From an uncultured Gemmatimonadales bacterium (GTDB taxonomy: Bacteria > Gemmatimonadota > Gemmatimonadetes > Gemmatimonadales > GWC2-71-9), in the NCBI GenBank assembly GCA_963828735.1, contig CAWHFW010000002.1:480001-544000 (forward strand): a stretch of DNA of 64,000 nt, in the 5' to 3' direction. A program made the position numbers and the translations under genes. The notes under the pieces were generated by a model. That model was not told where the DNA came from and did no database searches. It was given only the letters and a program-made list of their open reading frames with translations. Shown here piece after piece: positions 6,072-56,581 of the stretch (position 1 is its first letter; each line of letters opens with the position of its first letter).

Positions 6072-6800
6072 CTAGATTTTTTCCCGGAGGACGTCGGGCG
6101 TGAACTGCTGCAGCCAGCCTGCCAATCTGGTGAACTCCCCCGTGGTCATCAGGATTCCCACGAAGATGAGCAACGCACCGCTCACCCGCATCACCCACGG
6201 CAGATAGCGCCGGAAGCGCTGGAACCAGTCCAGAAACGCGTCCAACGCCACGGCGGCCAGCAGGAACGGGACCGCCAGACCCGCCGAGTACACGGCGAGA
6301 AGAAGCAGGCCCCGCGTGAGGTCGTGCGATGTCGCCGCGAGCCCGAGGATCGCGCCCAGCACGGGCCCGATGCATGGCGTCCAACCGGCCCCGAAGGCCA
6401 TGCCGACCAGCGCCGATCCGAGGTATCCCACTGGCTTCTGGTCCACCTGGAGCCGACGCTCCTGGTTCAGGAACGGCGCCTTGACGACGCCCAGACAGAT
6501 CAGCCCGAACAGGATGATCAGGGCGCCGCCGATGCGCTGGAGCCATTGCTGGTAGTAGTTGAGCGCGCGGCCGAGGGCAGTGGCGCTGGCGCCGAGCACC
6601 ATGAAGACCAGCGTGAAGCCGAGCACGAACAGGAGCGCGTGCCCGAGTGCCACGCGGCGCCGAGCCGCCACCTCCGGCAGGCTCATCCCGGTGAGAAACC
6701 CGATGTAGGACGGCACCAGCGGCAACACGCACGGCGAGAGGAAGCTCAACAGCCCGGCCGCGAACGCGACGAACAGCCCGAGGGTGGCGGGCTCGCTCAC
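6072..6800 (-). CDS. ccdA: Cytochrome c biogenesis protein CcdA
   Basis: SFLSPCVLPLVPSY and GWTPCIGP motifs. Confidence 0.93.
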   Translation of the reverse strand: MSEPATLGLFVAFAAGLLSFLSPCVLPLVPSYIGFLTGMSLPEVAARRRVALGHALLFVLGFTLVFMVLGASATALGRALNYYQQWLQRIGGALIILFGLICLGVVKAPFLNQERRLQVDQKPVGYLGSALVGMAFGAGWTPCIGPVLGAILGLAATSHDLTRGLLLLAVYSAGLAVPFLLAAVALDAFLDWFQRFRRYLPWVMRVSGALLIFVGILMTTGEFTRLAGWLQQFTPDVLREKI

Positions 6801-7267
6801 AGCGCGCCCAGCTCCTGCTGCCGGCACTGCCGGCAGACCCCGTAGATCTCGACCCGGTGGCGGCCATGCTGGAACGCGTGCTCATCAGCGATGATCGGGA
6901 GCATCCGCTCGAGCCGCTCGTTCTGAAACTCCACGACGCGTCCGCAGCGCTCGCAGATCAGGTGCTCGTGGTGCGCCTGCGCCGGCATCGGCTCGTAGCG
7001 CTTGAAGCCCTCGCCGAAGTCGTGCGCGCGCACGAGGCCGCTCTCGACCAGCACGTCGAGTGTGCGATACACGGTGGCGGTGCCGACGTGCTCGCCGCGC
7101 TCCTTGAGCGCGCGGCGAATGCCTTCGACCGACGGATGGTCATCCGACAGGAGGACGATCTGCGCGACCAGGTCGCGCTGGCGGGTGACAGGCTGGCGGT
7201 GCTCGCGGAGATAGCGCCGAAAGCGCTCGAGGAGGGCCGCGCCCTCGCCGCTAGCGAGGCTGGGCAT
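6797..7267 (-). CDS. fur: Fur-family transcriptional regulator
   Basis: TRQR, ATVYRTL, HHEHLICERCG, YGVCRQC. Confidence 0.9.
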   Translation of the reverse strand: MPSLASGEGAALLERFRRYLREHRQPVTRQRDLVAQIVLLSDDHPSVEGIRRALKERGEHVGTATVYRTLDVLVESGLVRAHDFGEGFKRYEPMPAQAHHEHLICERCGRVVEFQNERLERMLPIIADEHAFQHGRHRVEIYGVCRQCRQQELGAL

Positions 7268-7613
7268 CGGCGGCCGCCGCGAAGAACTCCTCGGGCGGCA
7301 CGGGCACCGGCGGCTGCTCGTCGTCGATGCGGCGCTGCGCGTCGTTGAGCAGCTGGGCCAGGGCCTCGACCGGTCCGCTTCCCACCTCGGCCACCGACGC
7401 CTCGAACTTGCCACGCTCCTTGCCCTTGATGGCCAGCATGTAGCGAGCCGTGTAGATCCGGCGCCGCTCGCCATCCACCCGCGACAGGATCGCGGTGCCC
7501 CACTCGCGGCCCTCGTGACGCAGGGTCGTGAACACCCAGACGCCGTCCACCTCGGCCGGCGGCACCTGCTCCGCCACCGCGGCCGCAAGCCGGGGCCAGC
7601 CAAGCCCGGTCAT
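7251..7613 (-). CDS. Conserved hypothetical protein (120 aa)
   Basis: Overlaps both neighbours; globular composition (MTGLGWPRLAAAVAEQ...). Confidence 0.75.
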   Translation of the reverse strand: MTGLGWPRLAAAVAEQVPPAEVDGVWVFTTLRHEGREWGTAILSRVDGERRRIYTARYMLAIKGKERGKFEASVAEVGSGPVEALAQLLNDAQRRIDDEQPPVPVPPEEFFAAAADAQPR

Positions 7614-8701
7614 GTGCCGCTCTGCTCCCATCGCTCCGTGTAGAATCGCAACACGTGCATGAAGTCCTGGGCATTGGTCACGACCCCGTAGGCCTGGTGA
7701 GTGCCCCGGTCCTTGAGCTTGTTCACCACGAACTCGGTCTGATCGACGCAAATGGTCATGAGCGGCGCCGGGCCCTGATCGCCGAGGTAGAACGCCGGCA
7801 GCATGTTGCCCACCGCGATCGCGTGCAGCGCCGTCGCCACAAAGATGGCACCCGTCGCCTTGACCGTGTGCTCGCGCATCGCATCCTGCGCGGCCAGCGT
7901 CTCGCTGTAAACGCCGGGCAACGGGCCGTCATCGCGAATGGACCCCGCCAGCACGTAGGGCACGTGCTGCGACACGAGCGCATGCATGATCCCGCTCTTG
8001 ATGAGGCCCGTCTCGACGGCGCGCTCGATCGAGCCGGCGGCCCGCACGCGGTTGATCGCCCGCATGTGGAGGCCGTGGCCGCCTTCGGTCGGCTGCCCGG
8101 TGTTGGTCATCCCGAGGGTAGTGCCGAAGATCGCCGCCTCGATGTCGTGCACCGCGACCGCGTTGCCCGCGAGCACCGCCTGCACGTACCCCTGCCGGAT
8201 GAACCACTCGAAATCCGCCCGGGCGCGCGAGTGCACCAGCGCCGGCCCGACGACCCAGACGAGGTACCCGCCGCGACGCTTCTCCTCGCCGACGCGCGCG
8301 GCCAGCTCCTCGTAATTGACCGGCCGCTCGCGGCTCACCTCGGTGGACATGAAACGGAATTCATTGGCCCCGTGACCGCCGCCCAGGAACCCTTCCGAGT
8401 GGACCACGATGCCGTCGGTACCGTCCTCGGCTTCGCCCATGGCCACGAGGTCACCCTTCCGCAGCCGGCGCGGCTCGATGGTCTCGATTGCACGGTCGCG
8501 TTTCACCAGGACGCAGTCCATCCGCGGCCGCGTCGGGGCGAGCCAGCGCCCGTCCACGTGAACGTACGTCGGAAGGTTGGACGTCGAGAAGAAGCCTTCG
8601 GGCAGGACGCCGTCGGCCGGAAGGGGGGCAAACCGAGCCTCCGGCGAGCCCGCGAACGGAGGCCGCGCGAAGTCCGGCAGCGCCTTGTGAGTCGTGGTCA
8701 T
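7610..8701 (-). CDS. TIGR00300 / LOR-SDH-domain protein (ArgZ C-terminal-like ornithine cyclodeaminase family)
   Basis: PEGFFSTSNLPT, FRFMSTEVSRE, GNAVAVHDIE, LAGSIRDDGPLP, LHAIAVGNMLP, KLKDRG. Confidence 0.85.
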   Translation of the reverse strand: MTTTHKALPDFARPPFAGSPEARFAPLPADGVLPEGFFSTSNLPTYVHVDGRWLAPTRPRMDCVLVKRDRAIETIEPRRLRKGDLVAMGEAEDGTDGIVVHSEGFLGGGHGANEFRFMSTEVSRERPVNYEELAARVGEEKRRGGYLVWVVGPALVHSRARADFEWFIRQGYVQAVLAGNAVAVHDIEAAIFGTTLGMTNTGQPTEGGHGLHMRAINRVRAAGSIERAVETGLIKSGIMHALVSQHVPYVLAGSIRDDGPLPGVYSETLAAQDAMREHTVKATGAIFVATALHAIAVGNMLPAFYLGDQGPAPLMTICVDQTEFVVNKLKDRGTHQAYGVVTNAQDFMHVLRFYTERWEQSGT

Positions 8702-8796: not shown

Positions 8797-10918
8797 ATGC
8801 GCCAATTCGCCCAGATGTTGATCGCAGTCCTCGTCGCCCCCTCCCTCGCCGCCCAGGTGCCGGCACCCGCCGATACCACTCGCCGCGACACCACGCACGT
8901 CACCGAGCTCCCGGAGCTCAACGTGACCGTGACGCGGACGACCGAGCCGTTGACGCGCGTGCCGTTCGCGACCGGCGTCCTCGATCGCACGGCGCTGCAG
9001 CGAGGCCAACAGACGGTCGGCATCGACGAGGCGCTCAACAACATCCCGGGTGTGGTCGTCTCGAACCGGTACAACTATTCGCTCGACCAGCGCATCTCCA
9101 TCCGCGGCTTCGGGAGCCGCTCCAATTTCGGCGTGCGCGGGCTCAAGATCCTGGTGGATGGAGTTCCGCAGACGCTTCCCGACGGCCAAAGCCAGCTCAC
9201 CAACGTGGACTTCGGAAACCTCGAGCGTGCCGAAGTCCTCCGCGGCTCCGCCTCGTCGCTCTACGGGAACGCGTCCGGCGGCGTCATCTCGTTCGAGACC
9301 ATGGGCGCCGCGCAGGCGCCGATCGCCCAGCGCGTGCGGTTTCAGGGCGGAGGCGGCGAGCGGGACGGCGACGGTTTCTACAAGTGGCAGAGCTGGACAT
9401 CCGCTCGGTCGGGCAGCGCGAGCGGGACGCTGTCGATCTCGCAATTCAAGGCCGACGGCTTCCGGCAGCACAGCGCCGGGGAGACCCGACAGCTCAACGC
9501 CGGCGTGGACTACGCCTTCAGCGGCACGACGCTCGGTCGGGTCCGACTGAGCCTGGCGGACAACCCGGAGGCGCAAAATCCGGGAGCGCTGACACGCAAC
9601 GAGTATGTCGCCAATCGGGATTCGGCCGCGGCCTCCAACATCCTCCGCGGCGCCGATAAGGACGTTCAGCAGCAGCAGCTCTCGCTCGGCCTTCAGCATT
9701 TCGACGCCGCGGGCAACGAATACGAGGTGACGGTGTTCGGCGTGCTTCGCAATCTGGCCAATCCGCTCGCGGCGCCGCCCGACATCAATCCGGGACCGAC
9801 GGCAGGCACCTTCGTCACCATCGACCGTGCCGTGGCGGGGCTTCGGCTGAGCGGCAGCCGACGGCTCGGCACGGGCGAGATGGCACCCCGGCTGGTGGCC
9901 GGCGCTGACCTGCAAGGCCTGCGGGACGATCGGACGAACGCCGTATCGGATGCCGGGACGCCGACGGACCAGATCTTTCTCGACCAGCGGGAAAGGGTCA
10001 CCGAGCTCGGCCCGTTCGCCCAGCTCCAATGGAGCCCACACGCAGCAGCTCCTGCTGAACGGCGGCGCGCGCTACGACTGGGTCCACTTCTCCGTGGAGG
10101 ACCACTACCTGGGCGACGGATCCGACGACAGCGGCGCGCGCACGATGTCGTCGCTGAGCGGGAACGTGGGGGCCAGCTGGTCGTTCGGCGACCCGTTCGT
10201 GCCTTACGTGAACGTCTCCACGTCCTTCGAGACCCCGACCACCACGGAGCTCGCGAACCAGCCGGACGGCTCGGGCGGCTTCAATCCGGATCTGGGTCCG
10301 CAACGCGCCGTCAACTACGAGATCGGGGCACGAGGGCAGGCCGCGCCCGGGGTCACCTATTCCGTGGCCCTGTTCCTGGGCCGGATCACGGATGCGATCG
10401 TCCAGGTCGGTGAGATCGGGGGCCGCGCGTTCTTCGGCAACACAGGGAAGACGCACAACGACGGGGCCGAGATCGGGCTCACCGTCACGCCCACGGCGGG
10501 TGTCACCCTGAGCGGTGCCTACACCTACGCGCATTACCGCTTCGCGAGCGGCGACTTCGACGGCAACAAGCTTCCCGGCGTGCCGGATAATTTCGTGCGG
10601 ATCGGGCTCCGGACCTCCCTGCCCCGCGGGTTCTTCCTCGATGCCGACCAGACGATCAGCTCGTCGGTGCCCGCCGACGACGCCAACACGATCATCATCG
10701 ACTCGTGGGACGCGGGAGTCACCAATGCCCGGCTCGGCTGGCAGGGTGTCGCGGGCACCCTGCAACTCGGCCCGTTTCTGGGCGTGAACAACCTGTGGGA
10801 TCGGCAGTACGTCGGGTCGGTGACGCTCAACGGCATCGGCGGGCGCGTGTTCGAGCCCGCACCGAGGCGGGTGATCTATCTGGGAGCGGAGATCGGATAT
10901 CGGACGGCGGGCGAGTAG
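8797..10918 (+). CDS. TonB-dependent receptor (YncD-like; frameshift at about 10040)
   Basis: Signal peptide; plug motifs ISIRGFG..FGVRG..ILVDG and EVLRGSASSLYGNASGGVI; FETPT; C-terminal FEPAPRR beta strand. Confidence 0.9.
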
Positions 10919-10946
10919 AGGGGTCGGACAATCGTGGCCTTCACCG

Positions 10947-13362
10947 TCACAGCAACGACACCGGATCCCGATCGATCACGACCCGCACCTCCCCCGCGCG
11001 CGCCAACCGCGGCGCCGCGTACCGCACGATGCGGCCCAGCACCTCCGAGGAGCCCTTGAGCAGCAGGTGCCAGCGCCACCGGTCCTTGATGCGAGCGAGG
11101 GGGCACGGCGCGGGCCCCAGGAGCATGACCGGCAAGGCGTACTTCTCGAGCAGTCCCGCGCACCAGTCCGCGAGCTCCGTGGCGCGCCCGCTGACGGCGG
11201 GCTCGTCCGGGCCGGAGATGACGAAGTTCACCAGCGACGTCACCGGCGGGTACGGCGGCGACTCCCGGAGCGCGCGCTCTTCCCGGAGAAACCCCTCGGT
11301 GTCGTGGCGGGCCGACCAGACCAGGGCATGGTGGGTCGGGTGCCGGGTCTGCACGAGTACGCGCCCGCCCTTCGGCCCCCGACCCGCGCGTCCCGCGACC
11401 TGCGCCAGCAGCTGGAAGGTGCGCTCCGCCGCCCGAAAATCGGGCAGGTAGAGGCCGGTGTCGGCGTCCACCACCCCGACCAAGGTCACGTTGGGGAAGT
11501 CGAGCCCCTTGGCGATCATCTGCGTCCCGAGCAGCAGATCCACCTCGCCCGATTCGACCGCGGCAAGGATCCGCTGGTGCGACCACTTGGTGCTCGTCGT
11601 GTCCAGGTCCATGCGCGCCAGCCGGGCCTCGGGATAGCGCTCGGCGAGCAGCCGCTCCAGCTGTTGGGTGCCGAAACCGCGCATCTGCTGCACCGGGCTC
11701 GCGCAGGCGCGGCAGGTGAACGGCAGCGGCTCCTCGTGGCCGCAGTAGTGACAGCGCAGACCCGGCGGCGCCGTGTGCACCGTGAGCGAGATGGTGCAGC
11801 GTGGACACTGCCATACCTCGCCGCAGTCGGGGCACTGGAGGAAAGCGGCGTACCCCCGGCGGTTGAGGAGCAGCAGTCCCTGCTCCTTCCGCGCGAGCGT
11901 CGCCGAGGATCGCCTCGTCGAGCGCTTCGGACCAGGCGACCGCCCCCGTCCCGCTCACCTTGGGCGCGACCCGCAGGTCCACCAGCTCGACCGGCGGCAG
12001 GGGTCGCGCGCCGATCCGTTCGGGAAGTCGCAGCAGCCGGAGCCGCCCCTCCGCCAGTGCCATGGTCTCGAGGGATGGCGTCGCGCTGCCGAGGACCAGG
12101 CCGGCGCCTTCGATCCGCGCGCGGACGGCCGCCACGTCGCGGGCGTGGTATCGCGGCGTCTCGCCGTTCTTGTAGCTGGCCTCGTGCTCCTCGTCGAGCA
12201 CGATCATCCCGAGATCCTGGACCGGCGCGAACACGGCCGAGCGCGCGCCGACGGCCACCCGGCGCTGGCCTCGGCGCAGGAGCCGCCAGGCATCGGCTCG
12301 CTCGCCGTCGGACAGCGCGCTGTGGAGGACGGCGACCTGATCGCCGAAGGCGCCGCGGAGACGGCTCACCGTCTGCGGCGTGAGCCCGATCTCCGGCACC
12401 AGCACGATCGCCCCCCGGCCTGCGGCGAGCATCCGGCGAACGGCCTCGAGATACACGAGCGTCTTACCGCTACCGGTGACGCCGAACAGCACGGCGCCCT
12501 CGCCGGGCCCGAGCGACTGGACGGCCGCCAAGGCCGTCTGTTGATCGGCCGTCAGGCTGGTCGGCGGTGGTATCACGGGAAAGTCGGCGAACGGGTCGCG
12601 CAGGCGCTCGGCGCGGCCGATGCGAACGAGCCCGCGTCGCTCCAGCGCCCGAAGCACGCCCATCGCGAAGCCGAGCTGGCCGGTGACATGGCTGACCAGC
12701 ACGCTGCCGCCGAGTTGTTCGAGCGCCTCGTACAGGCGTCGCTGCTTGACCGCCCGCCGAAAGAGCGTGTCGCGCTCGAGCAGGGTCGGCGGATCGCCCG
12801 CCACGCTCGCGACGCGCTCGGTGAGCGCCGCCGCCTCGGTGTCCGGCGGCTCCACCCGCAGCGACACCGCGCCGACTCGCGCCAGCCGATCCAGCACGTC
12901 CCACACCGGCCGCTTGAGCGCCCGGGCCGCCGTGGCGACCGGCGCCTCGCCGCCGCGCTTCTCGAGCCACGCCACCACGTCCCCGGCGAGCCCGCCGGGC
13001 ACACGGGACCCCCGGACGAGCGATGCGACGACGTGCGACTCCCCCCACAGGCCTCCCGGGAGCATGCTCTTGAGGGTGAGGCCGAGGGGCGCGCCATAGT
13101 AGCCGGCCATCCAGCGGGCCGTTTCGAGCAGCCCGGCTGGGACCGCGGTGTCGACGTCCGGGGCGGCGAGGACGTCTCGGGGCGCGGCCGCAGGCGCGGG
13201 CGCGTCCGTCGCGACGACGATGCCGATCAGCTCCCGCCGGCGGACCGGAACGACGACGCGGGCGCCGGCGACCACCCGGTCGCCCAGCGTCTCGGGAATG
13301 CGGTAGGTGTACGAGGAGGCGAGCGGAAGCGGGAGGGCGACCTGAGCGAAGCGCTCGGTCAT
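10947..13362 (-). CDS. priA: Primosomal protein N' (frameshift at about 11905)
   Basis: GVTGSGKT, VPEIGLTPQ, DEEHE, SATPS, zinc-finger Cys pairs, GTQMIAKGLDFP, QVAGRAGR. Confidence 0.95.
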
Positions 13363-14384
13363 CTCGCCCGGACGCCGAGCCCGGGTCCGTCGGGCAGCGT
13401 CACCTGGCCACCGGCGATGCTCGCGCCGACGAACGGATCACTGGCGAGCAGCGCGGCACCGTCGAGATCCACGATGTCCACCAGCGGAGTGAAATGGGCG
13501 GCAGCCGTGATGCCGAGCGAGCTCTCGATCATGCACCCGACCATGACCATCATCCCGTGCGCCCGCGCGATCGCGATCATGCGGAGCGCCTCGCGAAGGC
13601 TGCCGCACTTGGCCAGCTTGATGTTGATGCCGTCCACGGCGCCGACCAGCGGCGGGATGTCGGCCGAGGTGCGGCAGCTCTCATCGGCGATCACCGGTAT
13701 GGTGGCGCGGCGGCTGATCTCCGCAAGGCCGGCGATCTGGTCGGGGGGGAGCGGCTGCTCGAGCACGGTGACGCCGAACTCCTGGAGCACGGGGAGCATC
13801 GCGATGGCCTGCTTCACCGTCCAGCCGCAGTTGGCGTCGACCCGGATCTCGCGGTCGGTCGTGTCGCGGATCGTGCGCAGGATCTCCACGTCCCGGTCGG
13901 TGCCGAGCTTGATCTTGAGGATCGGATACTCGGCGGCTTCCCGCACCTTCATCCGGATGCGCTCGGGCGTATCGAGGCCGATGGTGAACGTGGAACGCGG
14001 CGCCTTCCCCGGATCGAGGCCCCACAGGCGATATACGGGAACTCCCAGCCGCTTGCCGACGAGATCGTGGAGCGCGCCGGACAGCGCCGCCCGCGCCGAG
14101 GCGTTGATGCGGAGCATCGACTCCCACCGGCGCTCGGTCTCCTCGATGTCGAACGGATCGCACGGCATCCCGCCGACGTACACGTTGAGCGCCGCCAGCA
14201 CCGTCTCCGCCGTCTCCCCGTAGAACCGCGAGGGCGTCGCCTCGCCCCAGCCGACGTTGCCGTCGGCATCCCGCAGGCGTACCCAGATGGTCCGGTAGTC
14301 GCTCTGGCCACCCCGCGCGATGATGAACGGGTGCTTGGTGCGCAGCTCGAGATACTCGGCTTCCATGTGGAGTTGCTGGGCCAC
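13359..14384 (-). CDS. L-Ala-D/L-Glu dipeptide epimerase (enolase superfamily)
   Basis: KIKLG, VDANCGW, EQP, ADES, NIKLAKCG, GCMIES, DLDG. Confidence 0.9.
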   Translation of the reverse strand: MAQQLHMEAEYLELRTKHPFIIARGGQSDYRTIWVRLRDADGNVGWGEATPSRFYGETAETVLAALNVYVGGMPCDPFDIEETERRWESMLRINASARAALSGALHDLVGKRLGVPVYRLWGLDPGKAPRSTFTIGLDTPERIRMKVREAAEYPILKIKLGTDRDVEILRTIRDTTDREIRVDANCGWTVKQAIAMLPVLQEFGVTVLEQPLPPDQIAGLAEISRRATIPVIADESCRTSADIPPLVGAVDGINIKLAKCGSLREALRMIAIARAHGMMVMVGCMIESSLGITAAAHFTPLVDIVDLDGAALLASDPFVGASIAGGQVTLPDGPGLGVRAR

Positions 14385-14435
14385 TGGGTCCTCGTTGGTA
14401 GAGACGCGGGAGAGAGCGGACGACGGTCGACCCGG

Positions 14436-14500
14436 TCCGACAAGGGGGTCCGGCCGCCGCGCTTGCGCGCGCAGTCGGGCCGGACCCCCTCGAGGTCGGA
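14436..14500. repeat. Intergenic GC-rich inverted repeat
   Basis: GGGGGTCCGGCC...GGCCGGACCCCC 12-bp arms, flanked by TCCGAC/GTCGGA. Confidence 0.65.
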
Positions 14501-14506
14501 CGGAGT

Positions 14507-15404
14507 TTAGGCGAGCGCGAGCACGTGCGCCAGCACCCCTTCGGCCAGCCGCTCAGGCACGTAGCCCCCCTCGAGCAGCCCGACGACCGGCGCCGCGGGC
14601 AGGCGCTCGCGCAGGCGAAGGGTGAGGTCCTCGTACTGCGCGGGCTCGAGCGTGAATCCGCCCAGGGGATCGCCGAGCATCGCGTCGAAGCCGGCGGAGA
14701 CGAGCACCAGGTCGGGCACCCAGCCCGTCGTCGCCGCGGCGATTGCCGCCCAGAGGTCATCGACGTAGCGCGAGGGCGGAGCGCCCGGGCCGCGGGGCAC
14801 GTTGAACACGTTGCCCACGCCGCGCTCGTCGGCCATGCCGGTCCCGGGATACCACGGGTGCTGATGCAGCGACACGTACCGGACCGTCTCATCGTGCTCG
14901 ATCAGCGCCTGGGTGCCGTTGCCGTGATGAACGTCCCAGTCCACGATCAGCACCCGGTGTCGCCCGGCCCGCTGCGCGTGGCGGGCCGCGATGACCGCGT
15001 TCGCCACGAGGCAGAATCCCATGGCACGCGACGCGAGCGCGTGGTGTCCGGGCGGCCGCACCGCGGCGAAGGCGTTGCCATGGCCGGCGTGCGCGTGATC
15101 CACGGCGGCGAGCACGGCACCGACCGCCCCCAATGCCGCGGACCAGCTCGCGTCGTTCACGATGGTGTCGAGGAAGAGGGCCCCGCCGCCCCGCGCACTC
15201 GCGGCCGCGAGACTCTCGAGGTACTGGCGGGGATGGACGGTCAGCATCGGCTCGATCGAGGCGGCGCGATGCGTCGCGGACGTCGACACCGACCGCAGCT
15301 CGCGCCCGCTCGAGCAGAACGCGCAGCCGCGAGGGGGTTTCAGGATGATCCGGCCCGGGGTCGTGGCGGAGGCAATCCGGGTGGGTGAAGACGGAGATGG
15401 TCAC
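14507..15404 (-). CDS. Histone deacetylase-family protein (frameshift at about 15270)
   Basis: HPETPSRL, RPPGHHA, GFC, DWDVHHGNGTQ, SAGFD, LEGGY. Confidence 0.92.
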
Positions 15405-15420
15405 GAGCGCGAAACCACCG

Positions 15421-15681
15421 TTATCGGACCGGCCTCCGCCGCTTGGAAAGGACGATCAGGGCGCCGTTGGGCACGACGCCGGCGTCGGCCAGCGATCGCG
15501 ATTCGTCCTGCAGCTCGGCACCGCGGAACTTGAGCACGTACGCGGCGGGGTCCCGGATCACGCGCGTGGCCTCGAGGGCCCGGCGCTTGACCTCGGTCAG
15601 CGGCGTGGAACTCGGGAGATCCAGGCGGACCTCGTCCCACGCGTCTTGCACCATCACCCGGACGGGGAGTGTGTCGCTCAT
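15421..15681 (-). CDS. Ubiquitin-like (beta-grasp) small protein
   Basis: Pattern VK...[20 protein letters not shown]...LIVL resembles ubiquitin and YukD by eye. ATGA-coupled to the upstream gene. Confidence 0.75.
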   Translation of the reverse strand: [86 protein letters not shown]

Positions 15682-15950
15682 GCGGACAGCGCCGTGGCGG
15701 ACGGCAGCGTCGACAGGAACCGGTCCACCGCCTGATCAAACAGCAGCGTCGAGGCGCGCACGCGGGTGCCGCCCGGCGCCGGCACTACCGCCAGCGCGAT
15801 CTCTTCCCCACCCTGGCCTCGAAGCGCCAGGTACGTCGGACCCTCCTTCTCGGGGAACGCCGCCTGCAACGGCACGCGCTCGGCGAAAAACCGCTTTGCG
15901 CGGCGCAGGACTTCCGCGCCCTCGAGGGCAGTCACGACTTCGTACACCAT
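15678..15950 (-). CDS. Small hypothetical protein (90 aa)
   Basis: MVYEVVTALEGAEVLRRAKRFF...; stop overlaps the start of the next gene. Confidence 0.75.
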   Translation of the reverse strand: MVYEVVTALEGAEVLRRAKRFFAERVPLQAAFPEKEGPTYLALRGQGGEEIALAVVPAPGGTRVRASTLLFDQAVDRFLSTLPSATALSA

Positions 15951-15978
15951 GAGCGTTCCGTTGAAGTAGGGTGAGCCG

Positions 15979-16695
15979 TCACGGCGAGCCGGGAAGATAA
16001 TCGGTAGGCTCGACCACCCGCACCGCGGCGTGATAGGTCTTGGCCGGCCGGAGCAGCGCCAGAACACCAGGCTTTCGCCGAAGCACCAGCAGAACCTCTC
16101 CCGGCGGGCCGTCCGCGAGCCCTTCGAGCACGAGAAAGGACGGCAGTGTGGCATCGGGCGGGATCGCCACGTCGTAGTCGCGGCCGGCCCAATGCACCGG
16201 AACCGTCGCCGGCACTTCGCGGACGATGCGATCGAGAAACACGTCGTCCTCGACGCGCCACGCGTCGTCTCCCACGGGAGCACCGGCCAGGAAGAACGCC
16301 GGGTCGAACGCCTCCCCGTCCTGGCGGGCGTAGTTCTGCTCGACCGCCCAGTCGAACTCCTCGAGATCCGGCGCCCGCGCCCGCCACTCCAGGTGGTGGC
16401 GGAGCTCGTGGGTGAGGGTCTCGAACGCCTCTTCCCGCCAGTCGAAGCCGGGCGTGACCCGCGCGAGCGCCTTGAAGGATCCGTGATAGAGCACGACCCG
16501 GCTCTGGATACCCTCGGTCCCGGCGGCCTCGCCCACCGGCAAGGGAATGCATTCCCCCAGGGTGAAAATGCCCGGCCGCTCGGGATGCGGCACCGTTCGC
16601 GGGGAGACGACGATCTCGGCCACGCCGTCAAGGAACTCGCGGGGCACCTCGCCGGCCATCCGCACCACCATCGCTTCGAAGTCGGCCAGGCGCAT
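15979..16695 (-). CDS. Minimal zincin-like metallopeptidase with C-terminal extension
   Basis: FEAMV..M..EVP..FL, VVLYHGSF, HELRHH (HExxH). Confidence 0.85.
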   Translation of the reverse strand: MRLADFEAMVVRMAGEVPREFLDGVAEIVVSPRTVPHPERPGIFTLGECIPLPVGEAAGTEGIQSRVVLYHGSFKALARVTPGFDWREEAFETLTHELRHHLEWRARAPDLEEFDWAVEQNYARQDGEAFDPAFFLAGAPVGDDAWRVEDDVFLDRIVREVPATVPVHWAGRDYDVAIPPDATLPSFLVLEGLADGPPGEVLLVLRRKPGVLALLRPAKTYHAAVRVVEPTDYLPGSP

Positions 16696-16711
16696 GCGCT
16701 CCCCCCAACCG

Positions 16712-18049
16712 TCATTCGCCGCCGATGCGCTCCGCGACGTAGGCCGCGACCTGGTCGACCCCGACCCGCTCCTGCTGCATCGAGTCCCGGTGCCGCACGG
16801 TCACGGTCCGCTGTGCTGCCGTGTCGCCGTCGACCGTGATGCCGAACGGCGTTCCGGCCTCGTCCATCCGGCGGTAGCGCCGCCCGATGGCGCCGCTGTC
16901 GTCATAGAACGCGGGGAAGCGTCGCTTGAGATCGTGATACAGCGCCGTAGCGAGCTCCGGCATGCCGTCTTTCTTGACCAGCGGGAACACACCCGCCTTG
17001 ATGGGCGCCACCGCGGGGTGAAAGCCGAGCACGACGCGGGTCTCCCCCTCGACCGTTTCCTCCCGGTACGCATCCACCAGGAGCGTGAGGGCCACGCGGT
17101 CCGCCCCGGCCGAGGTCTCGACGATGTACGGCAGGTAGCGCTCGTTCGCCGCCTGATCGAAGTATTCGAGCTTCTTGCCCGAAAACTCCTGGTGCCGGCC
17201 GAGGTCGAAGTCGCCGCGGTTGTGGATGCCCTCGATCTCCTGCCAGCCGAACGGGAACTCGTACTGGATGTCGAACGCCGCGCGCGCGTAGTGGGCCAGC
17301 TCGTCCTTCCCGTGCTGATGCCACTGGAGCTTCGCGGGCGTGAGGCCGAGATCCGTGTGCCACCGCATGCGCCACTCGCGCCAGCGCTCGAACCAGTCGG
17401 CGTCGGTGCCCGGCTTCACGAAGAACTGCATCTCCATCTGCTCGAACTCGCGGGTCCGGAAGATGAAGTTGCCCGGCGTGATCTCGTTCCGGAACGCCTT
17501 GCCGATCTGCGCGATGCCGAACGGAATCCGCTGCCGCGAGCTCTGCAGGACGTTGAGGTAGTTGACGTAGATGCCCTGCGCCGTCTCGGGCCGGAGATAC
17601 ACCACGGCCGCCTGCTCCTCGACCGGCCCCATGAACGTCTTGAACATCAGATTGAAGAGGCGCGGCTCGGTGAGCGTCCCCTTGCTGCCGCACACGGGAC
17701 ACTGGGCGTCCGGCTGGCCGGGCGTTCCCTTGATGCGTGGGTCGTCGGCGCGAAAGCGGTTCTTGCACTGGCGGCAATCCACCAGCGGATCGGTGAAGCC
17801 GGCGACGTGGCCCGACGCCTCCCACACCCGCGGGTGCATCAGGATGGCGGCATCGAGCCCCTCGATGTCGTCGCGCGCGTGGACCATCGCACGCCACCAG
17901 CGGTCCTTCACGTTCTTCTTGAGCTCGACGCCGAGGGGACCGTAGTCCCAGACCGAGCCCAGTCCGCCATAGATCTCGGAGGACTGGAAGACGAAGCCTC
18001 GGCGCTTGCAGAGGGAGACCAGCTTGTCCATCAGGGTGGTATCGGCCAT
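16712..18049 (-). CDS. glyQS: Glycine--tRNA ligase (alpha2 type)
   Basis: [48 protein letters not shown]. Confidence 0.97.
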
Positions 18050-18134
18050 GGAGCGCGTCGCTGTCGAGAGAGGGGGCGAGGCGAGCGAGGAAAATAGGCC
18101 GGGCCGGAGCGGTAAGGAAGCGCCAGCCGGTCTC

Positions 18135-18163
18135 TTGCGGGGCCAAAATCCCATAGATAGCTT
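18135..18163 (+). promoter_or_regulatory. Putative sigma70 promoter giving a leaderless mRNA for the PqqD-like gene
   Basis: TTGCGG-N17-TAGCTT, 6 nt before GTG at 18170. Confidence 0.5.
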
Positions 18164-18169
18164 TGTGAT

Positions 18170-18451
18170 GTGCAAAACTCACTGCGCCGGGCTCGGTATC
18201 CCCACGCCCGCGCCGACCTGACCTTCCGACCCGTCGAGGGGCACTTCGCCCTTACCGACCGCGCCGGTGCACAGACCGAACTGTTGACGCTCGCCGCCGC
18301 CCTCGTCTGGACCTACTGCGATGGCCGCCACGCCCCCGAGGCCATCGCCAAGGCGATCGCGCGCGCGCTCCCCGAGGCGGCCGAGGATGCCTCGGAGCGG
18401 GTGGCGGCCCTGCTGTCCCGGTTCCGCAGCAAGGGGATATTGAGCATCTAG
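18170..18451 (+). CDS. PqqD-family / RiPP recognition element protein
   Basis: [16 protein letters not shown]....IA..I......DV..LL..F...G.L pattern; 93 aa. Confidence 0.75.
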
Positions 18452-18593
18452 AGACTCGGCACCGACTTTGAGAACGCCCGAGCCCTCCTGGCCAGCGCTG
18501 GGAGGGCCTTTCCACGTCTGGCCCGAAGGTCCGGCTCTTCGGATCTGCCTACCGCCCGCGCTTTCTGCCCCGTCGAGGCTCGTGGTGCCTGAT

Positions 18594-18636
18594 CGTCAAG
18601 ATCAACAGACACAATGAGTTACGGTTGATCTCGACG
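18594..18636. promoter_or_regulatory. Inverted repeat enclosing an IHF-like site upstream of the HEAT/HD-GYP operon
   Basis: CGTCAAGATCAAC-N17-GTTGATCTCGACG (12/13 match); core contains CAATGAGTTA. Confidence 0.55.
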
Positions 18637-18683
18637 TGGCGGAGAACTTGCACGTGCAGATTCGACCCCTCCACCGGCCAGCC

Positions 18684-20759
18684 ATGGGCTCCACGCCAGA
18701 GGGAGGCGACTCCCTCACCCACGCCGCGGGCGCGCGCTCGGTCGCGACCCTGTCCCGGGACTTGGCGGATTTTCTCGTCGAGTTCTCCATCGTGCTGCAC
18801 AAGCGCGCGATGTACCCTCTGGGGCATCCCCACCTCCAGGAATCCACCTCTCGATTCGTCGACCGGCTCGAGTCCCTCCTCTCCCCGAGGGAGTCCCTGG
18901 CCATCGGCATCGCCCGCCAGCAACTCATCGTGGCCGGGACCGCTACCAATCCGCGCAACGCCCTGCTCAGCGACCTCGCCCGACGCTTTCACCGGCACCG
19001 CATCGCGACGGTGCGCTTCGACCGCGGGGTGGGCCTGCAGGAGATCGACGACCTGCTGGCGGGCGTGGCGGCCGATCCGCAGGGCGAGGCCGGGCCGTTC
19101 GGTCTCCGTCCCGGTGTGGGCGCCGCGTGGGTGCACCTTCGGATCCAGCCGCCCGAGCTCACCCGCATGTTCCTGCAGGACGACGACGAGCCTGCCGAGC
19201 GGCCGGAGACGCCGGCCGGCGCGCTCTGGCTCGGCCTCGCTCACCTCGCGCTGTCGGGGGACGGTAGCCCGACGGACGACGCCGAGGATCCCCTGCTCGT
19301 CGCCCGCGCCATCGACGCCCAGCCGGAGCAGGTGGCGTACGACCGGGTGGTGCTCGACTACCTGAACCAGATCGCCGACGAGATGTCCGGTCGCCACGGC
19401 GCATGGGAGCCGCGGATTCGCGAGCGGGTCTCGCGATTGGTCACCTCGCTCAAGCCCGAAACGCTTCGCCGCGTGCTGGAGGCCGCTACCAACGACGACG
19501 AGCGCCGCCAGTTCGCGCTCACCGCCTCACAGGTTCTGGCCGTCGAGGCGGTTATCGAGGTCGTAGAGGCCGCGGCGGCCACGAGCGGGCAGACGATCTC
19601 GCACCAGCTGTTGCGCCTGCTGCACAAGTTCGCCCAACACGCCGAGAGCGGCCCGGAAGGCGTGCGCGCGGAGGCGGAATCCACGCTTCGCGAGAACGTC
19701 GCGCAGCTGCTCAAGGGGTGGGCGCTGGAAGACCCGAATCCGGGCGCCTACACGGCCGTCCTCGAGGGCATGGTGCGGCAGTCCCCCCAGACACACACCG
19801 CGGCGGACGGGCAGCTCGACTGCGAGCCCGACACGCTGCTGCAGCTGGCTCTGGAGCTGGACTGCGTGGGACCGCGGGTCGAGCATGCGCTCGACATGCT
19901 GATCGAGACCAATCGGGTCCCCGCCGCGCTCGACCTGCTTCGCGCAGCGCCCGCCGAGGCGAGCGCGACCGCGGAAACGCTGTGGCGTCGCCTGGCGACG
20001 CCGGGCCGACTCGAGGCGGCGATCGGCGCCGACCAACCGGACTTCGCGACGATCGAGGGGCTGGTGGCTCGACTCGGCCCGATGGCGACCGAGCCGCTGC
20101 TCGACCTGCTCGAGCGGGCGACGATCAGCTCGGTCCGTGGCCGCGCGCTCCGCCTGCTGGTCGAGATCGGCCCATCGGTGGCGCCGGCCGCCGTGGCTCG
20201 GCTCAAGGACGCCCCCTGGTACGTGCAACGCAACGTGCTGGCCCTGCTCCGCACCCTGCACGTCTGGCCACCGGACTTCTCGGCTGTGTCGTACGCGCGA
20301 CATCCCGAGCCTCGGCTGCGCCGGGAGGCCTACCGCCTGCTGCTCGACTTTCCACCCCACCGGGCATCCGCCATCGCGCACGGCCTGGACGACTCCAGCG
20401 CCGACATTGTGACCCTCGTGCTGCGCGCCGCCGTGGACGACTGTCCGCGTGAGGCTCTGCGAGCCCTCGAGCGATTCACCGAGGACCGTCGCCGCCCGGC
20501 CGAGCTTCGCGCGCTCGCGGTTCGCGCAGTCGCCCGCGATGGGGGCGTGCAGGCCGTGCCCAGGCTGTTGCAGCTCGCCGGGGCCCGCCGCTCCTTCTTC
20601 GGGTGGCGGTTGGACGCCAGCACGCCCGTCGCCCTCGCCGCCGTCTCGGCGCTCGCACGGTACTTCGGCGCCGATCCGCACGTGGCGGGGTTGCTCCAGG
20701 CCGCGCGCGAGCACAGTAACGCGGACATCCGTCTCGCCGCGCGGATGCGTTCCGCATGA
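18684..20759 (+). CDS. HEAT-repeat protein
   Basis: Helical repeats, LKDAPWYVQRNVLALL, HPEPRLRREA; N-terminal YPLGHP domain. Confidence 0.85.
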   Translation: MGSTPEGGDSLTHAAGARSVATLSRDLADFLVEFSIVLHKRAMYPLGHPHLQESTSRFVDRLESLLSPRESLAIGIARQQLIVAGTATNPRNALLSDLARRFHRHRIATVRFDRGVGLQEIDDLLAGVAADPQGEAGPFGLRPGVGAAWVHLRIQPPELTRMFLQDDDEPAERPETPAGALWLGLAHLALSGDGSPTDDAEDPLLVARAIDAQPEQVAYDRVVLDYLNQIADEMSGRHGAWEPRIRERVSRLVTSLKPETLRRVLEAATNDDERRQFALTASQVLAVEAVIEVVEAAAATSGQTISHQLLRLLHKFAQHAESGPEGVRAEAESTLRENVAQLLKGWALEDPNPGAYTAVLEGMVRQSPQTHTAADGQLDCEPDTLLQLALELDCVGPRVEHALDMLIETNRVPAALDLLRAAPAEASATAETLWRRLATPGRLEAAIGADQPDFATIEGLVARLGPMATEPLLDLLERATISSVRGRALRLLVEIGPSVAPAAVARLKDAPWYVQRNVLALLRTLHVWPPDFSAVSYARHPEPRLRREAYRLLLDFPPHRASAIAHGLDDSSADIVTLVLRAAVDDCPREALRALERFTEDRRRPAELRALAVRAVARDGGVQAVPRLLQLAGARRSFFGWRLDASTPVALAAVSALARYFGADPHVAGLLQAAREHSNADIRLAARMRSA

Positions 20760-21907
20760 GCGAGCCGGTCCGCTTCCTCACCTCCCTCTCGCAGGCGCTC
20801 TCGACGCTCGCCCTCTATGGCGAGGGTCACCCCGCCGTCCGCCGCGCGACGGACAGCGCCTACCGCCATCTCGCCGACCTGCAGGCCGGCGGCGGCGCCC
20901 TGGTGTTCACGTTTCTGCCCGAAGAGGTGCTGTTCGGGCGCGACCTCCTGCCCGATCTCGAGCGGTGGGAGTGGAGCAACCGGTTTGCGCAGGGCGGCGT
21001 GGAACGGCTCGAGATCGACGGCGCGGTGTCGGAGCCGCAGTTCGACCGCTTCCTCGGTCATCTCGCCGCGGTGGTCGGGTTGGCGGGTGACGCCCGCTCG
21101 GACCTGTGGCAGGACGGCCCCGAAGGCATCCGCTTCGGGCGCGTCCGGCTGGACGCCGGCGGCCCGGCACCGGCTCAACCTCTGCCCGTCGCCAAGCTGG
21201 CCTACTCACTCAGAGAGGAGCGCGACGCCGTGGGCTGGATGCACCAGGAGGTGAGCGCAGGCCACTCCCTTCCGTTGCTCGAGGCCTACGGCGTGGTCCG
21301 CTCGCTGTCGCTCGCGATGCACGGCGGCCAGGCGATGGTGATGCCGCTCCTCCAGCTCAAGGAGTTCGACCAGTACACCACGACCCACTCCATGAACGTC
21401 TCGGTCCTGGCGATGTCCCTGGGCGAATTCCTCGGCGCGGCGCCCACGGCAGTGCGGAGCTTTGGACTCGCCGGGTTGCTCCACGATCTGGGCAAGGTGA
21501 GGATCCCGCGGGAGATTCTGGCAAAACCAGGGAAGCTCACGCCCGAGGAGCGGACGGTGGTCGAGGCGCATCCCTCGGATGGAGCCCGGCTCATCCTTCG
21601 CGGTGACGAGCCGCTGGACCTGGCCGCGGTCGTGGCCTACGAGCATCACCGTTACCACGATGGCGGCGGATATCCCCGGGTCCATTACGACCGCGCGGCC
21701 CACCACGCCAGCCGCCTGGTCCACGTCTGCGACGTGTACGACGCCCTCCGCACCCGCCGTCCCTATCGCGACGCCTGGTCGTCCACCGAGGCGCTCACCT
21801 ACATCCATGACCGGGCCGGCTCGGAGTTCGACCCCGCGATGGCCGCCACGTTCATCGAGATGATGCGGCGATGGGACGACCGCATTGCCCTCCAGGAAAT
21901 CGCCTGA
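20756..21907 (+). CDS. HD-GYP phosphodiesterase
   Basis: YTTTHSMNV, LLHDLGK, HH..DGGGYP, VCDVYDAL..RPYR, FDP. Confidence 0.92.
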   Translation: MSEPVRFLTSLSQALSTLALYGEGHPAVRRATDSAYRHLADLQAGGGALVFTFLPEEVLFGRDLLPDLERWEWSNRFAQGGVERLEIDGAVSEPQFDRFLGHLAAVVGLAGDARSDLWQDGPEGIRFGRVRLDAGGPAPAQPLPVAKLAYSLREERDAVGWMHQEVSAGHSLPLLEAYGVVRSLSLAMHGGQAMVMPLLQLKEFDQYTTTHSMNVSVLAMSLGEFLGAAPTAVRSFGLAGLLHDLGKVRIPREILAKPGKLTPEERTVVEAHPSDGARLILRGDEPLDLAAVVAYEHHRYHDGGGYPRVHYDRAAHHASRLVHVCDVYDALRTRRPYRDAWSSTEALTYIHDRAGSEFDPAMAATFIEMMRRWDDRIALQEIA

Positions 21908-27621: not shown

Positions 27622-28403
27622 GTGTCGGCGTTGGACTTACTTCACCTCGCCAAACTCGCCGCCGAGCGGGCCGGCGGCTACCTCCGTGCCGTCGAGCGGC
27701 CGGCGGATCCGACCGCCTGGACTCTCAAGGGAAGTCGCGACTTCGTGACCGAGGTGGATCGCGCGGCCGAGCGGATCATCGCCGACGTACTGCTCGCCGC
27801 CGAGCCGGGCAGCCGGATCGTGGGTGAGGAGCTGAGCCCCGACGTGGTCAGCGAAGGACTCGTGTGGATCGTGGATCCGCTGGATGGGACCACTAATTTT
27901 TTGCACGATTTTCCGAGCTATGCGGTATCGATCGCCGCGGCGGTGGACGGGGCGCTCGAGGCGGCCGTCGTGCTGCAGGTGCCGCGCCAGGAGTGCTACA
28001 CGGCGGCCCGGGGGCCGGCGCGTGGCGAGGCGACCACCGGCTATCGGTCTCTCCCATCACCGACCCCGCGTTCGCGCTCATCGGCACAGGCTTTCCGTTC
28101 AAGGATACCTCGTCGCTGGGCGAGTACCTGTCCCAGTTCGCGCGGGTGGCAGCACAAACCAGCGGGATCCGCCGGCCGGGGTCCGCGGCGCTCGATCTCG
28201 CGGACGTCGCGGCCGGCCGGTTCGACGGCTTCTGGGAGCAGCGGCTCTCGGCGTGGGACCTGGCCGCGGGCGCACTGCTGGTCAGGGAGGCCGGCGGCAT
28301 CGTCACGGATTTCTCCGGACGCGACATCGGGGCGGAGCATACGGCGGTCGTCGCGGGGAATCCGGCGATTCACGCGTGGCTGCTGGAGATCGTCGGCGCC
28401 TAG
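27622..28403 (+). CDS. suhB: Inositol monophosphatase family (frameshift at about 28010)
   Basis: DFVTEVD, GEE, WIVDPLDGTTNF, GSAALDL, WDLAAG..LVREAGG. Confidence 0.92.
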
Positions 28404-56444: not shown

Positions 56445-56581
56445 GCGGCGGGTGGCCCCTGAGCGGGGCCCTTCGAGCCGCCCCGGCCCGGCATGTCGGG
56501 AGTTTCGCCTGGATTTCGATCTAGATGTGGGCAGGAGTGCCTGGGTGCATTCCGCCCTCTCAGACAACCAGGAGAGTTGGT

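Follow-up and report, generated by a model that had tools for sequence, protein, structure and literature searches.

Does the small ubiquitin-like gene found in a stretch of DNA from an uncultured Gemmatimonadales bacterium belong to a four-gene system, or is the unit in which it works a smaller one? The stretch, referred to here as the window, comprises 64,000 nt (positions 480,001–544,000) of contig CAWHFW010000002.1 from the 4.78-Mb, seven-contig assembly GCA_963828735.1, and has a G+C content of ~70%; the names carried by near-identical proteins likewise assign the organism to the Gemmatimonadales. An earlier note on this DNA had singled out an open reading frame (ORF) of 86 amino acids, encoding a ubiquitin-like protein (hereafter Ubl), and had grouped it with the genes for a 90-amino-acid protein (p90), a zinc peptidase (zincin), and an HDAC-family deacetylase as an undescribed module. 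The novelty held up, in that neither small protein falls into a described family, and so did the tight coupling of the p90 and Ubl genes; the four-gene unit did not. The invariant core of the locus is p90 and Ubl, two genes and not four. With moderate confidence, we regard this translationally coupled pair as the functional unit, a vertically inherited core module of the order Gemmatimonadales in which Ubl would remain unconjugated, act non-covalently together with p90, and use its basic C-terminal tail as the working element.

On the minus strand of the window, ORFs and Pfam matches give the gene order glyQS (glycyl-tRNA synthetase), zincin, p90, Ubl, HDAC-family gene, dipeptide-epimerase-like gene, and priA, with gaps of 16, 28, −4, and 16 nt between the first five. 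The p90 gene (15678–15950) and the Ubl gene (15421–15681) overlap in the tetranucleotide ATGA (15678–15681; gcATGAgc), where the stop codon of p90 lies on the start codon of Ubl, the mark of translational coupling. This coupling had been pointed out in the earlier note, together with the HExxH zincin before p90 (HELRH, 28 nt upstream), the HDAC-family gene after Ubl (GTG start at 15404, 16 nt past the Ubl stop codon), the position of the string downstream of glyQS (16 nt before the zincin gene), and the basic RRRPVR end of Ubl without Gly-Gly; all of this can be read directly in the DNA.

We compared 36 loci, 20 from the genus of the window and 16 from two other families (f2, n = 10; f3, n = 6). 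The p90 gene stood directly upstream of Ubl on the same strand in all 36, and its stop codon overlapped an in-frame Ubl start codon by 4 nt (A/GTGA) in each of the 35 loci that could be evaluated. By contrast, a zincin was matched in 22 of the 36 loci and the HDAC-family gene was adjacent in 33, so that the neighbourhood conservation named in the earlier note as a check holds for the inner pair and breaks down in part for the outer genes. Ubl was present in 60 of 61 relatives (f1, 35/36; f2, 12/12; f3, 12/12), and p90 in 123/125 members of f1, 69/69 of f2, and 3/3 of f3. At E ≤ 1e-3, clustered homologues numbered 1225 for Ubl (47–151 amino acids), and 291 cluster representatives among 1.84 billion proteins were homologous to p90. 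The 36-locus counts include one unpublished locus, L017 (genome G003), and the p90 tallies include the unpublished genomes G106, G198, G221, and G143, the last of which also enters the p90–moaD count, the p90-family tree, and the broad p90 profile A7 described below; leaving all unpublished genomes out changes no conclusion.

The structures of the two proteins were predicted with AlphaFold2 (AF2) from alignments of 23 rows for Ubl and 24 rows for p90. The Ubl model, with a predicted local distance difference test (pLDDT) score of 88.7, contains strands at residues 4–11, 16–23, 48–52, and 73–79 and a helix at residues 28–38. Foldseek returned at least 500 matches in PDB at E ≤ 1e-3, headed by ubiquitin variants, ISG15, SUMO, and BilA at E ~5e-8, with TM-scores of 0.74–0.81 to these proteins. 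In the VIA structural scan, the model matched BilA at Z 13.4 (8tyx_A) and Z 12.7 (8tyz_B; root-mean-square deviation (rmsd) 1.5 Å over 80 residues, 22% identity), and ubiquitin at Z 12.6 and an rmsd of 1.2–1.4 Å, which places the predicted fold within the ubiquitin-like beta-grasp superfamily. A profile of the 23 orthologues matched mono-ubiquitin (E 1.1e-3), ISG15 (E 1.7e-4), and BilA (E 0.015) in PDB, the best single-domain match being an 81-amino-acid "ubiquitin-like protein", 5zmb_A (E 5.7e-5 over the full length), an entry missing among the Foldseek and VIA matches shown for Ubl; the far lower E-values of the profile to poly-ubiquitin chains reflect repeat inflation.

Assignment to a described sequence family was weaker. 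The window Ubl had only sub-cut-off Pfam matches, including DUF2604 (PF10790; 20.5 bits, cut-off 25) and YukD (PF08817; 18.3 bits, cut-off 27), and no match to the ubiquitin family (PF00240) at E ≤ 0.1. Among the 23 orthologues, matches at E ≤ 0.05 were found to YukD in 13 (best 4.5e-6), to DUF2604 in 13 (best 1.3e-5), and to ubiquitin in three (best 4.9e-4). Membership in the ThiS/MoaD family (PF02597) was considered and rejected: the family matched in no Ubl scan, the protein has no Gly-Gly, and hhalign against six Gemmatimonadota MoaD proteins gave 12.7% and 3.4%, unlike true MoaD genes of sister orders, which score E 1e-16 to 1e-19 to the ThiS family. Ubl, p90, and the zincin had no match in NCBIfam or PADLOC, and NCBIfam likewise gave nothing for the C-terminal part of the HDAC-family protein. 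The by-eye alignment with ubiquitin in the earlier note was right, since the fold matches are to ubiquitin and BilA and the MoaD probability is only 12.7%; the likeness exceeds chance, and Ubl is a beta-grasp protein of the ubiquitin type and not of the ThiS/MoaD type. The fold search that the note had proposed for both small proteins thus returned a ubiquitin-type model for Ubl (Z 12–13) and, as described below, a KA1-like model for p90.

The most conserved features of the Ubl alignment are a seven-residue tail and a few core residues of the fold. The window protein ends in SKRRRPVR, the codons of RRRPVR (residues 81–86; 15424–15441) abutting the stop codon. Across the 23 orthologues, which come from three families, R82 and R83 do not vary, and the conservation of R81 and R86 reaches at least 90%; the consensus RRRRPVR forms the very last residues of the protein and contributes to a run of four to five consecutive Arg residues. 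The last 11 residues contain no Gly in these orthologues or in a set of 35 tails, 32 of which end in Arg, with PVH, PVE, and PVRS as the exceptions; in a more distant Gemmatimonadales metagenome-assembled genome (MAG), the tail reads RGRQAVR. When Ubl is aligned with ubiquitin, R81–R83 fall on R72-L73-R74, and P-V-R stands in place of Gly-Gly.

The partner, p90, had no Pfam match at E ≤ 10 and none in NCBIfam, and its nearest clusters in the ESM Atlas consisted solely of Gemmatimonadota hypothetical proteins. Its AF2 model (pLDDT 90.9) has the topology beta-alpha-beta4-alpha, and a VIA scan of 48,161 chains matched it to the CIPK regulatory domain 2zfd_B (Z 9.9, rmsd 1.8 Å over 80 residues), the KA1 domain of Chk1 (5wi2_B, Z 9.3), an SRPBCC cyclase (Z 9.2), and 5iri_B (Z 8.4), with other KA1, Aha1-C, and START-like proteins among the further matches. 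We therefore describe p90 as having a predicted KA1/helix-grip-like fold, newly seen here; the likeness to KA1 lies at the level of the fold and does not extend to sequence, and p90 is a free-standing protein of 90 residues without a kinase. In 24 orthologues, R44, G45, G47, E49, and E50 of the motif RGQGGEE (residues 44–50; codons at 15801–15821) are invariant, and no Cys is conserved. In the model, the motif forms the hairpin turn between the strands at residues 40–45 and 50–58. It is swapped for other motifs in p90 relatives linked to MoaD or to a second type of Ubl (type A, see below). A prediction of the p90–Ubl complex, with each protein entered as an alignment, scored 0.00 in two runs made without controls, a result that carries no weight for or against binding.

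Several apparent matches of p90 were set aside. The sole matches of its profile in PDB were the LRLRGG-M junctions of poly-ubiquitin, chance matches inflated by repeats (independent E-value of each stretch ~600), and the resemblance of RGQGGEE to LRLRGG of ubiquitin is for this reason not evidence of a relationship. Proteins of 444–4830 amino acids that match p90 positions 48–89 carry GxAYxFDATTGNLL repeats and are spurious. The broad profile A7 found only eL38 (E 0.023) and eIF2B-epsilon (E 0.26) in PDB, both judged to be chance. Longer, fused forms amount to seven proteins, each a singleton; they show no recurrent fusion and are probably products of gene calling or frameshifts.

On the reading that we favour, p90 and Ubl are always made together from their overlapping stop and start codons. 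Ubl would not be conjugated, since its C-terminus lacks Gly and it is not accompanied by an E1, E2, or protease of its own. It would instead act by non-covalent binding, most likely in a 1:1 complex with p90, and its basic tail might dock on the acidic p90 hairpin or, together with p90, on a third, acidic target. Several points weigh against this. Gene order is the sole ground for proposing that p90 binds Ubl. The pairing of tail and hairpin is a guess from charge, because both are invariant in the order and no covariation can be read from them. A functional tie to the deacylase is possible, because the HDAC-family gene follows Ubl in 33 of the 36 loci and, in the remaining three, stays within ~7.5 kb on the same strand. 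The missing terminal Gly does not strictly preclude covalent chemistry, which another enzyme may carry out. The AF2 models come from shallow alignments, and the link between p90 relatives and beta-grasp genes is not universal, since one p90 clade (G3, described below) has no beta-grasp neighbour.

The zincin gene (15979–16695, minus strand) encodes a 238-amino-acid protein that scores 25.7 bits against Zincin_1 (PF06262; cut-off 22.4) and carries the HELRH motif at residues 96–100 (16396–16410). Residues 6–115 match Thermus thermophilus TTHA0227 (2ejq; E 1.1e-17), including the segment HELRHHLE, and metallopeptidase activity is predicted; the extra C-terminal half has no known family. The 22 loci with a zincin match comprise 16 of the 20 loci of the genus and all six f3 loci, and none of the ten f2 loci. 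In the genus, two of the matches lie ~1.1 kb off and one locus has too little upstream DNA, so that the gene is missing or displaced in 4–6 of 20. A protein query for the zincin found none in five of five f2 genomes that are 98–100% complete. In f2, four of the five loci scanned have a gene for a GAF histidine kinase or a GAF protein upstream of the pair, and in f3 an opposite-strand Hsp20 gene can separate the zincin from p90.

In 33 of the 36 loci, Ubl is followed on its own strand by the HDAC-family gene, after a spacer of 16 to ~380 nt. In the other three (L028, L029, and L036, all f2), a ~7-kb MoxR/DUF58 block follows Ubl, and the HDAC orthologue lies ~7.5 kb on, on the same strand. In these three loci, genes for a MoxR AAA+ ATPase and a DUF58 protein stand directly after Ubl (~6300–8100), with a 4-nt overlap between the MoxR gene and the Ubl stop codon in L036. 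In other families, glyQS (16712–18175 in the window, minus strand; PF00587, PF03129), which heads the packed gene string, remains syntenic with p90 at a distance of 0.7–5.3 kb. Because glyQS, the epimerase-like gene, and priA are also kept in order, the neighbourhood looks like synteny around a two-gene core, and our best explanation is that the zincin and HDAC genes are syntenic neighbours, probably co-transcribed in the source genome, and not obligatory parts of the module.

In the window, the HDAC gene is split over two frames (14889–15404 and 14507–15289), a break at ~15267 that went unnoticed in the earlier note. Its C-terminal part matches PF00850 at E 1.9e-70 and 238 bits, intact orthologues reaching 281–291 bits. 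The window sequence carries one extra column relative to five of five same-genus relatives, and base 15267 is missing in every near-identical contig that covers it, in three DNA runs (X1, X4, X10), each from a separate study; these contigs show 0–4 other differences in 423–1853 nt; a more distant RNA-library contig is without one base at 15270. With base 15267 left out, a single frame of 298 amino acids results (14507–15404, minus strand), and HDAC family membership extends over the whole domain in one frame. On account of these contigs and of other split genes in the window, we read the frameshift as a probable assembly error and not as the sign of a pseudogene. The other split or truncated genes are those for a gamma-glutamyltranspeptidase (1452–3187, two ORFs), priA (10876–13362, two frames), an inositol monophosphatase (27993–28400, profile positions 136–266 only), and a di-haem cytochrome c peroxidase (56452–57749, two ORFs); together with the HDAC case, they suggest that the assembly contains scattered indel errors of single bases. 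An intact HDAC orthologue matched the catalytic domains of HDAC6 and a 307-amino-acid "lysine deacylase", 5zmp_A (E 9.6e-58); its PADLOC match, to the RecX family (E 0.0037), is at chance level. The PDB codes 5zmb, matched by Ubl, and 5zmp lie close together.

Among the alternatives, the one that survives best, which we nevertheless consider unlikely, is that the four genes form one system in which Ubl and p90 would regulate or target an HDAC-family lysine deacylase and the zincin would trim or mature one of the components. In its favour are the tightness of the gene string, the persistence of the HDAC gene at or near all 36 loci, and its adjacency to the Arg-tailed form of Ubl only, three loci with a Gly-tailed form (type A) having no HDAC gene. 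Soil RNA-library contigs from close relatives (3–25 differences) span 15149–15507, 15617–15868, 15925–16099, and 16135–16426, and thereby bridge the HDAC–Ubl, Ubl–p90, and p90–zincin junctions; the contigs give only a weak hint of co-transcription, since such a library may contain DNA and a contig is not a transcript. Uncovered parts of the stretch in the sequencing runs, and RNA runs with a small share, were set aside as evidence of habitat or expression level. That 5zmb and 5zmp are the best single-domain matches of the Ubl profile and of HDAC, respectively, would also fit, if the two entries belong together. Against a four-gene system stand the absence of the zincin from f2 and its loss or displacement within the genus, the ~7-kb block inserted between Ubl and HDAC in three genomes, Ubl–HDAC spacers that reach ~380 nt even within the genus, and the fact that plain synteny, which also preserves the order of glyQS, the epimerase-like gene, and priA, suffices to explain the arrangement. 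As to the role in protein processing or deacylation that the earlier note had suggested, the comparison of loci leans against its being obligatory, because the zincin is missing in f2 and HDAC is separable from Ubl.

To place the pair in a wider context, we turn to more distant p90 relatives. In five of five genomes from families f6 and f8, which belong to the same class as the window, a p90 relative stands directly upstream of a ThiS-family moaD gene with a Gly-Gly end, which is followed by moaE and moaA, and the same arrangement was found in one Longimicrobiaceae MAG, in a search with a four-row p90 alignment that returned four loci. In f5 and f6, a second, divergent p90 relative lies beside a Ubl homologue of type A (3/3 genomes examined; L050:5676–6256, L051:5479–6112, and L052:5600–6280). 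Type A and the Arg-tailed type B, to which the window Ubl belongs, are homologous over the fold (hhalign 99.3%). Type A proteins end in RP[YF]D[ML]DHPxPFxG, and all 22 sequences close with Gly; YukD was matched in 11 of the 22, and a type A profile found nothing in PDB at E ≤ 0.01. A DbpA-type helicase gene lies within ~2 kb in two type A loci, and one f6 genome has a ThiF-rhodanese gene at a distance of 4 kb from the pair. Ubl was absent in f8 (0/3), and its profile found nothing in f7 (0/2), f4 (0/1), and f9 (0/1); the p90 profile found nothing in f4 (0/6) and f9 (0/3) and gave weak matches in f7 (3/47, E ~6e-4 to 8e-4).

In a tree of 48 p90-family sequences, midpoint-rooted for drawing only, the clade of the window has the MoaD-linked f6 clade as its sister (support 93/84), and the MoaD-linked clade of f8 and Longimicrobiaceae groups with a further clade, G3, which has no beta-grasp neighbour in the sole locus examined (L053). 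At L053:3890–4909, the G3 protein has the motif HxEVGEIVIAA...VRGSASRG and G3 proteins have long C-terminal extensions; the gene lies beside Rieske-like and small membrane-protein genes. The p90 hairpin motif and the tail of the beta-grasp neighbour change together between clades. From the MoaD-linked, type A, and type B loci and from G3, the p90 family emerges as a recurrent but not a constant companion of beta-grasp genes, which come from two sequence families unrelated to each other, and a general link of the p90 family with beta-grasp proteins forms part of our best explanation.

A broader proposal can be built on these loci, namely that the p90 family is a dedicated partner of beta-grasp C-terminal tails, whether of MoaD or of Ubl, and that the Gly-ended sister Ubl is activated by the single MoeZ-type E1 as a carrier or modifier whereas the Arg-tail form is a purely non-covalent adaptor. 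We hold this to be quite unlikely; if true, the switch between covalent and non-covalent action would provide a natural example, within one bacterial phylum, of a ubiquitin-type protein moving between both uses.

The MoaD-linked loci also invite the thought that the pair belongs to sulfur-carrier or molybdenum cofactor metabolism, p90 being an accessory to MoaD-type carriers and Ubl a replaced or retired carrier at an old moaD position. The direct upstream position of p90 relatives at moaD-moaE-moaA and the sister relationship of the f6 MoaD-linked clade to that of the window speak for such an origin. Yet Ubl shows no specific kinship to MoaD in hhalign or Pfam comparisons and lacks the Gly-Gly needed for a thiocarboxylate, p90 has no conserved Cys, and the genome keeps an ordinary moaD-moaE pair elsewhere (C1:42179–42756). 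On the structural side, the p90 model matches the non-MoaD domain of the Thermus protein 1v8c at Z 7.2, within the range of common arrangements; 1v8c was absent at E ≤ 10 from PDB profile searches with the p90 alignments A1 and A7; and the family of that domain, DUF1952 (PF09189), did not match p90, a search of the whole genome with it giving one chance-level match (E 0.24) elsewhere. We regard this explanation as very unlikely.

Still less probable in our view is that the polybasic tail serves to target an acidic polymer or surface, such as RNA or the ribosome, DNA, polyphosphate, or acidic phospholipids, with the KA1-like p90 adding membrane or ligand binding. Four to five consecutive Arg residues at a free C-terminus would suit such a role, KA1 domains, of which some bind acidic phospholipids, are the closest structural analogues of p90 (Z 9.9 to 7.4), the surrounding genes include the housekeeping genes glyQS and priA, and two type A loci have the DbpA-type helicase gene nearby. 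However, p90 is not basic (10 Lys/Arg versus 10 Asp/Glu), the exact conservation of P-V-R behind the Arg run suggests a shaped pocket and not bulk charge, and neither p90 nor Ubl matches an RNA-binding family.

With respect to conjugation, we scanned 35 of the other ORFs in the window, in which 61 ORFs were called, leaving out the ribosomal-protein stretch at ~31.9–44.9 kb. No ThiF, JAB, E2, or type VII secretion family was detected among these 35, in agreement with the earlier statement that the window holds no E1, E2, or type VII genes. FtsK/EssC, WXG100, and EccD-like proteins were likewise not found in the 35 window ORFs or in 30 ORFs of related loci, no whole-genome search for them having been made. 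No E2 or dedicated E1 was seen at the 36 type B and three type A loci inspected. The only ThiF E1 of the source genome (C5:150324–151028) lies on another contig, beside a ThiS-family gene and the only Prok-JAB gene; in all, the genome has four ThiS-family genes and one moaD-moaE pair. The tight JAB–ThiS-family–ThiF string at C5:150324–151762 represents a CysO/MoaD-type sulfur-carrier cluster unrelated to the window Ubl. Ubl thus has neither of the features that mark conjugated modifiers such as ubiquitin, SAMP, TtuB, and BilA, a terminal Gly and neighbouring E1, E2, or JAB genes. Single-E1 systems that serve several ubiquitin-like proteins occur in Thermus and Haloferax. The least probable explanation, that Ubl is a covalent modifier or activated carrier whose Gly-ended sister is adenylated by a single MoeZ-type E1 (ThiF plus rhodanese) and whose Arg-tail form is attached or processed in another way, for instance after cleavage by the zincin, can draw on such systems, on the homologous type A protein with its constant terminal Gly, and on the ThiF-rhodanese gene 4 kb from one f6 pair, but has against it the Gly-free end of the window Ubl, the absence of the zincin from a whole family with the same tail, the lack of an E2 or dedicated E1 at the loci inspected, and the pairing of the only E1 of the genome with its own ThiS-family and JAB genes.

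Two further observations concern the surroundings of the string. A scan of 14200–18500 for promoters and terminators gave no signal above shuffled sequence. Divergent from glyQS, on the plus strand (18170–21904), lie genes for a 93-amino-acid PqqD-like protein (PF05402, E 4e-7), a 707-amino-acid protein without a Pfam match, and an HD_5/HD-domain protein, which may form a small module of the peptide-chaperone type.

Ubiquitin-type beta-grasp proteins, as distinct from those of the ThiS/MoaD type, are rare in bacteria, and the known ones are mostly sporadic, in defence islands and type VII secretion. Ubl belongs to the core genes of an entire and abundant order of soil bacteria, and it is coupled to a partner of no described family. 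The Arg-tail form, the Gly-ended sister, and the moaD-adjacent p90 relatives offer handles on the evolution of Ubl tails and their readers in a cultivable group. Should the pair prove to be a mere structural subunit of a housekeeping complex, it would still be a new pair of protein families, of modest reach. Our literature search, which covered titles and the beginnings of abstracts mostly outside subscription journals, found no description of a p90–Ubl module.

Among known systems, BilA of the E1-E2-JAB (Bil) operons provides the solved structures closest to the Ubl model (8tyx_A and 8tyz_B). The Ubl locus differs in having no E1, E2, or JAB gene, no terminal Gly, and no PADLOC match, and Ubl is shared as a core gene across an entire order, whereas BilA belongs to a sporadic defence island. 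MoaD and ThiS, and in particular the Thermus "MoaD related protein" 1v8c, a MoaD–DUF1952 fusion, resemble the pair in that a beta-grasp protein is made together with a small partner, in the position of p90 relatives directly upstream of moaD, and in the likeness of p90 to the non-MoaD domain. Ubl, however, lies outside the ThiS/MoaD family and lacks Gly-Gly, DUF1952 has no sequence match to p90, and the structural likeness remains within common arrangements. KA1 and CIPK-PPI domains supply the best fold matches of p90, with 2zfd_B and Chk1 ahead of the C-terminal domains of SAD-B, MARK, and AMPK-alpha (Z 8.4–7.2). At 7–14% identity, there is no sequence similarity to p90, which is a free-standing bacterial protein, and a shared fold does not mean a shared function.

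YukD and the N-terminal domain of EccD (PF08817) are, like Ubl, small bacterial beta-grasp proteins of the ubiquitin type without a Gly-Gly end, and YukD is the most frequent weak Pfam match of Ubl, in 13 of 23 type B and 11 of 22 type A sequences. YukD is not conjugated and is thought to be a non-covalent assembly factor of type VII (ESAT-6) secretion (PMC1779556). The window Ubl stays below the YukD cut-off, no ESAT-6, FtsK-like ATPase, or other type VII gene occurs among the scanned window ORFs, the phylum is different, and Ubl has a conserved Arg-rich tail and an obligatory 90-residue partner, whereas YukD has neither.

RnfH (RatB) and the START-domain protein RatA of beta- and gamma-proteobacteria form a two-gene string of unclear mechanism that is strongly conserved in a large clade (PMC1779556). 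The arrangement parallels that of p90 and Ubl, a gene for a helix-grip-type alpha+beta protein being followed by a gene for a small, non-conjugated, ubiquitin-like beta-grasp protein, and p90 itself has fold matches to SRPBCC/START proteins (Rv2186c, Z 9.2). The two pairs are nevertheless distinct: none of the 23 type B and 22 type A Ubl sequences matched RnfH at E ≤ 0.05, the locus has no smpB neighbourhood, and p90, which with its 90 residues reaches about two thirds of the length of a START domain, matches KA1 domains best. Set beside these systems, the p90–Ubl pair of the Gemmatimonadales appears as an undescribed but probably non-conjugating ubiquitin-like module.

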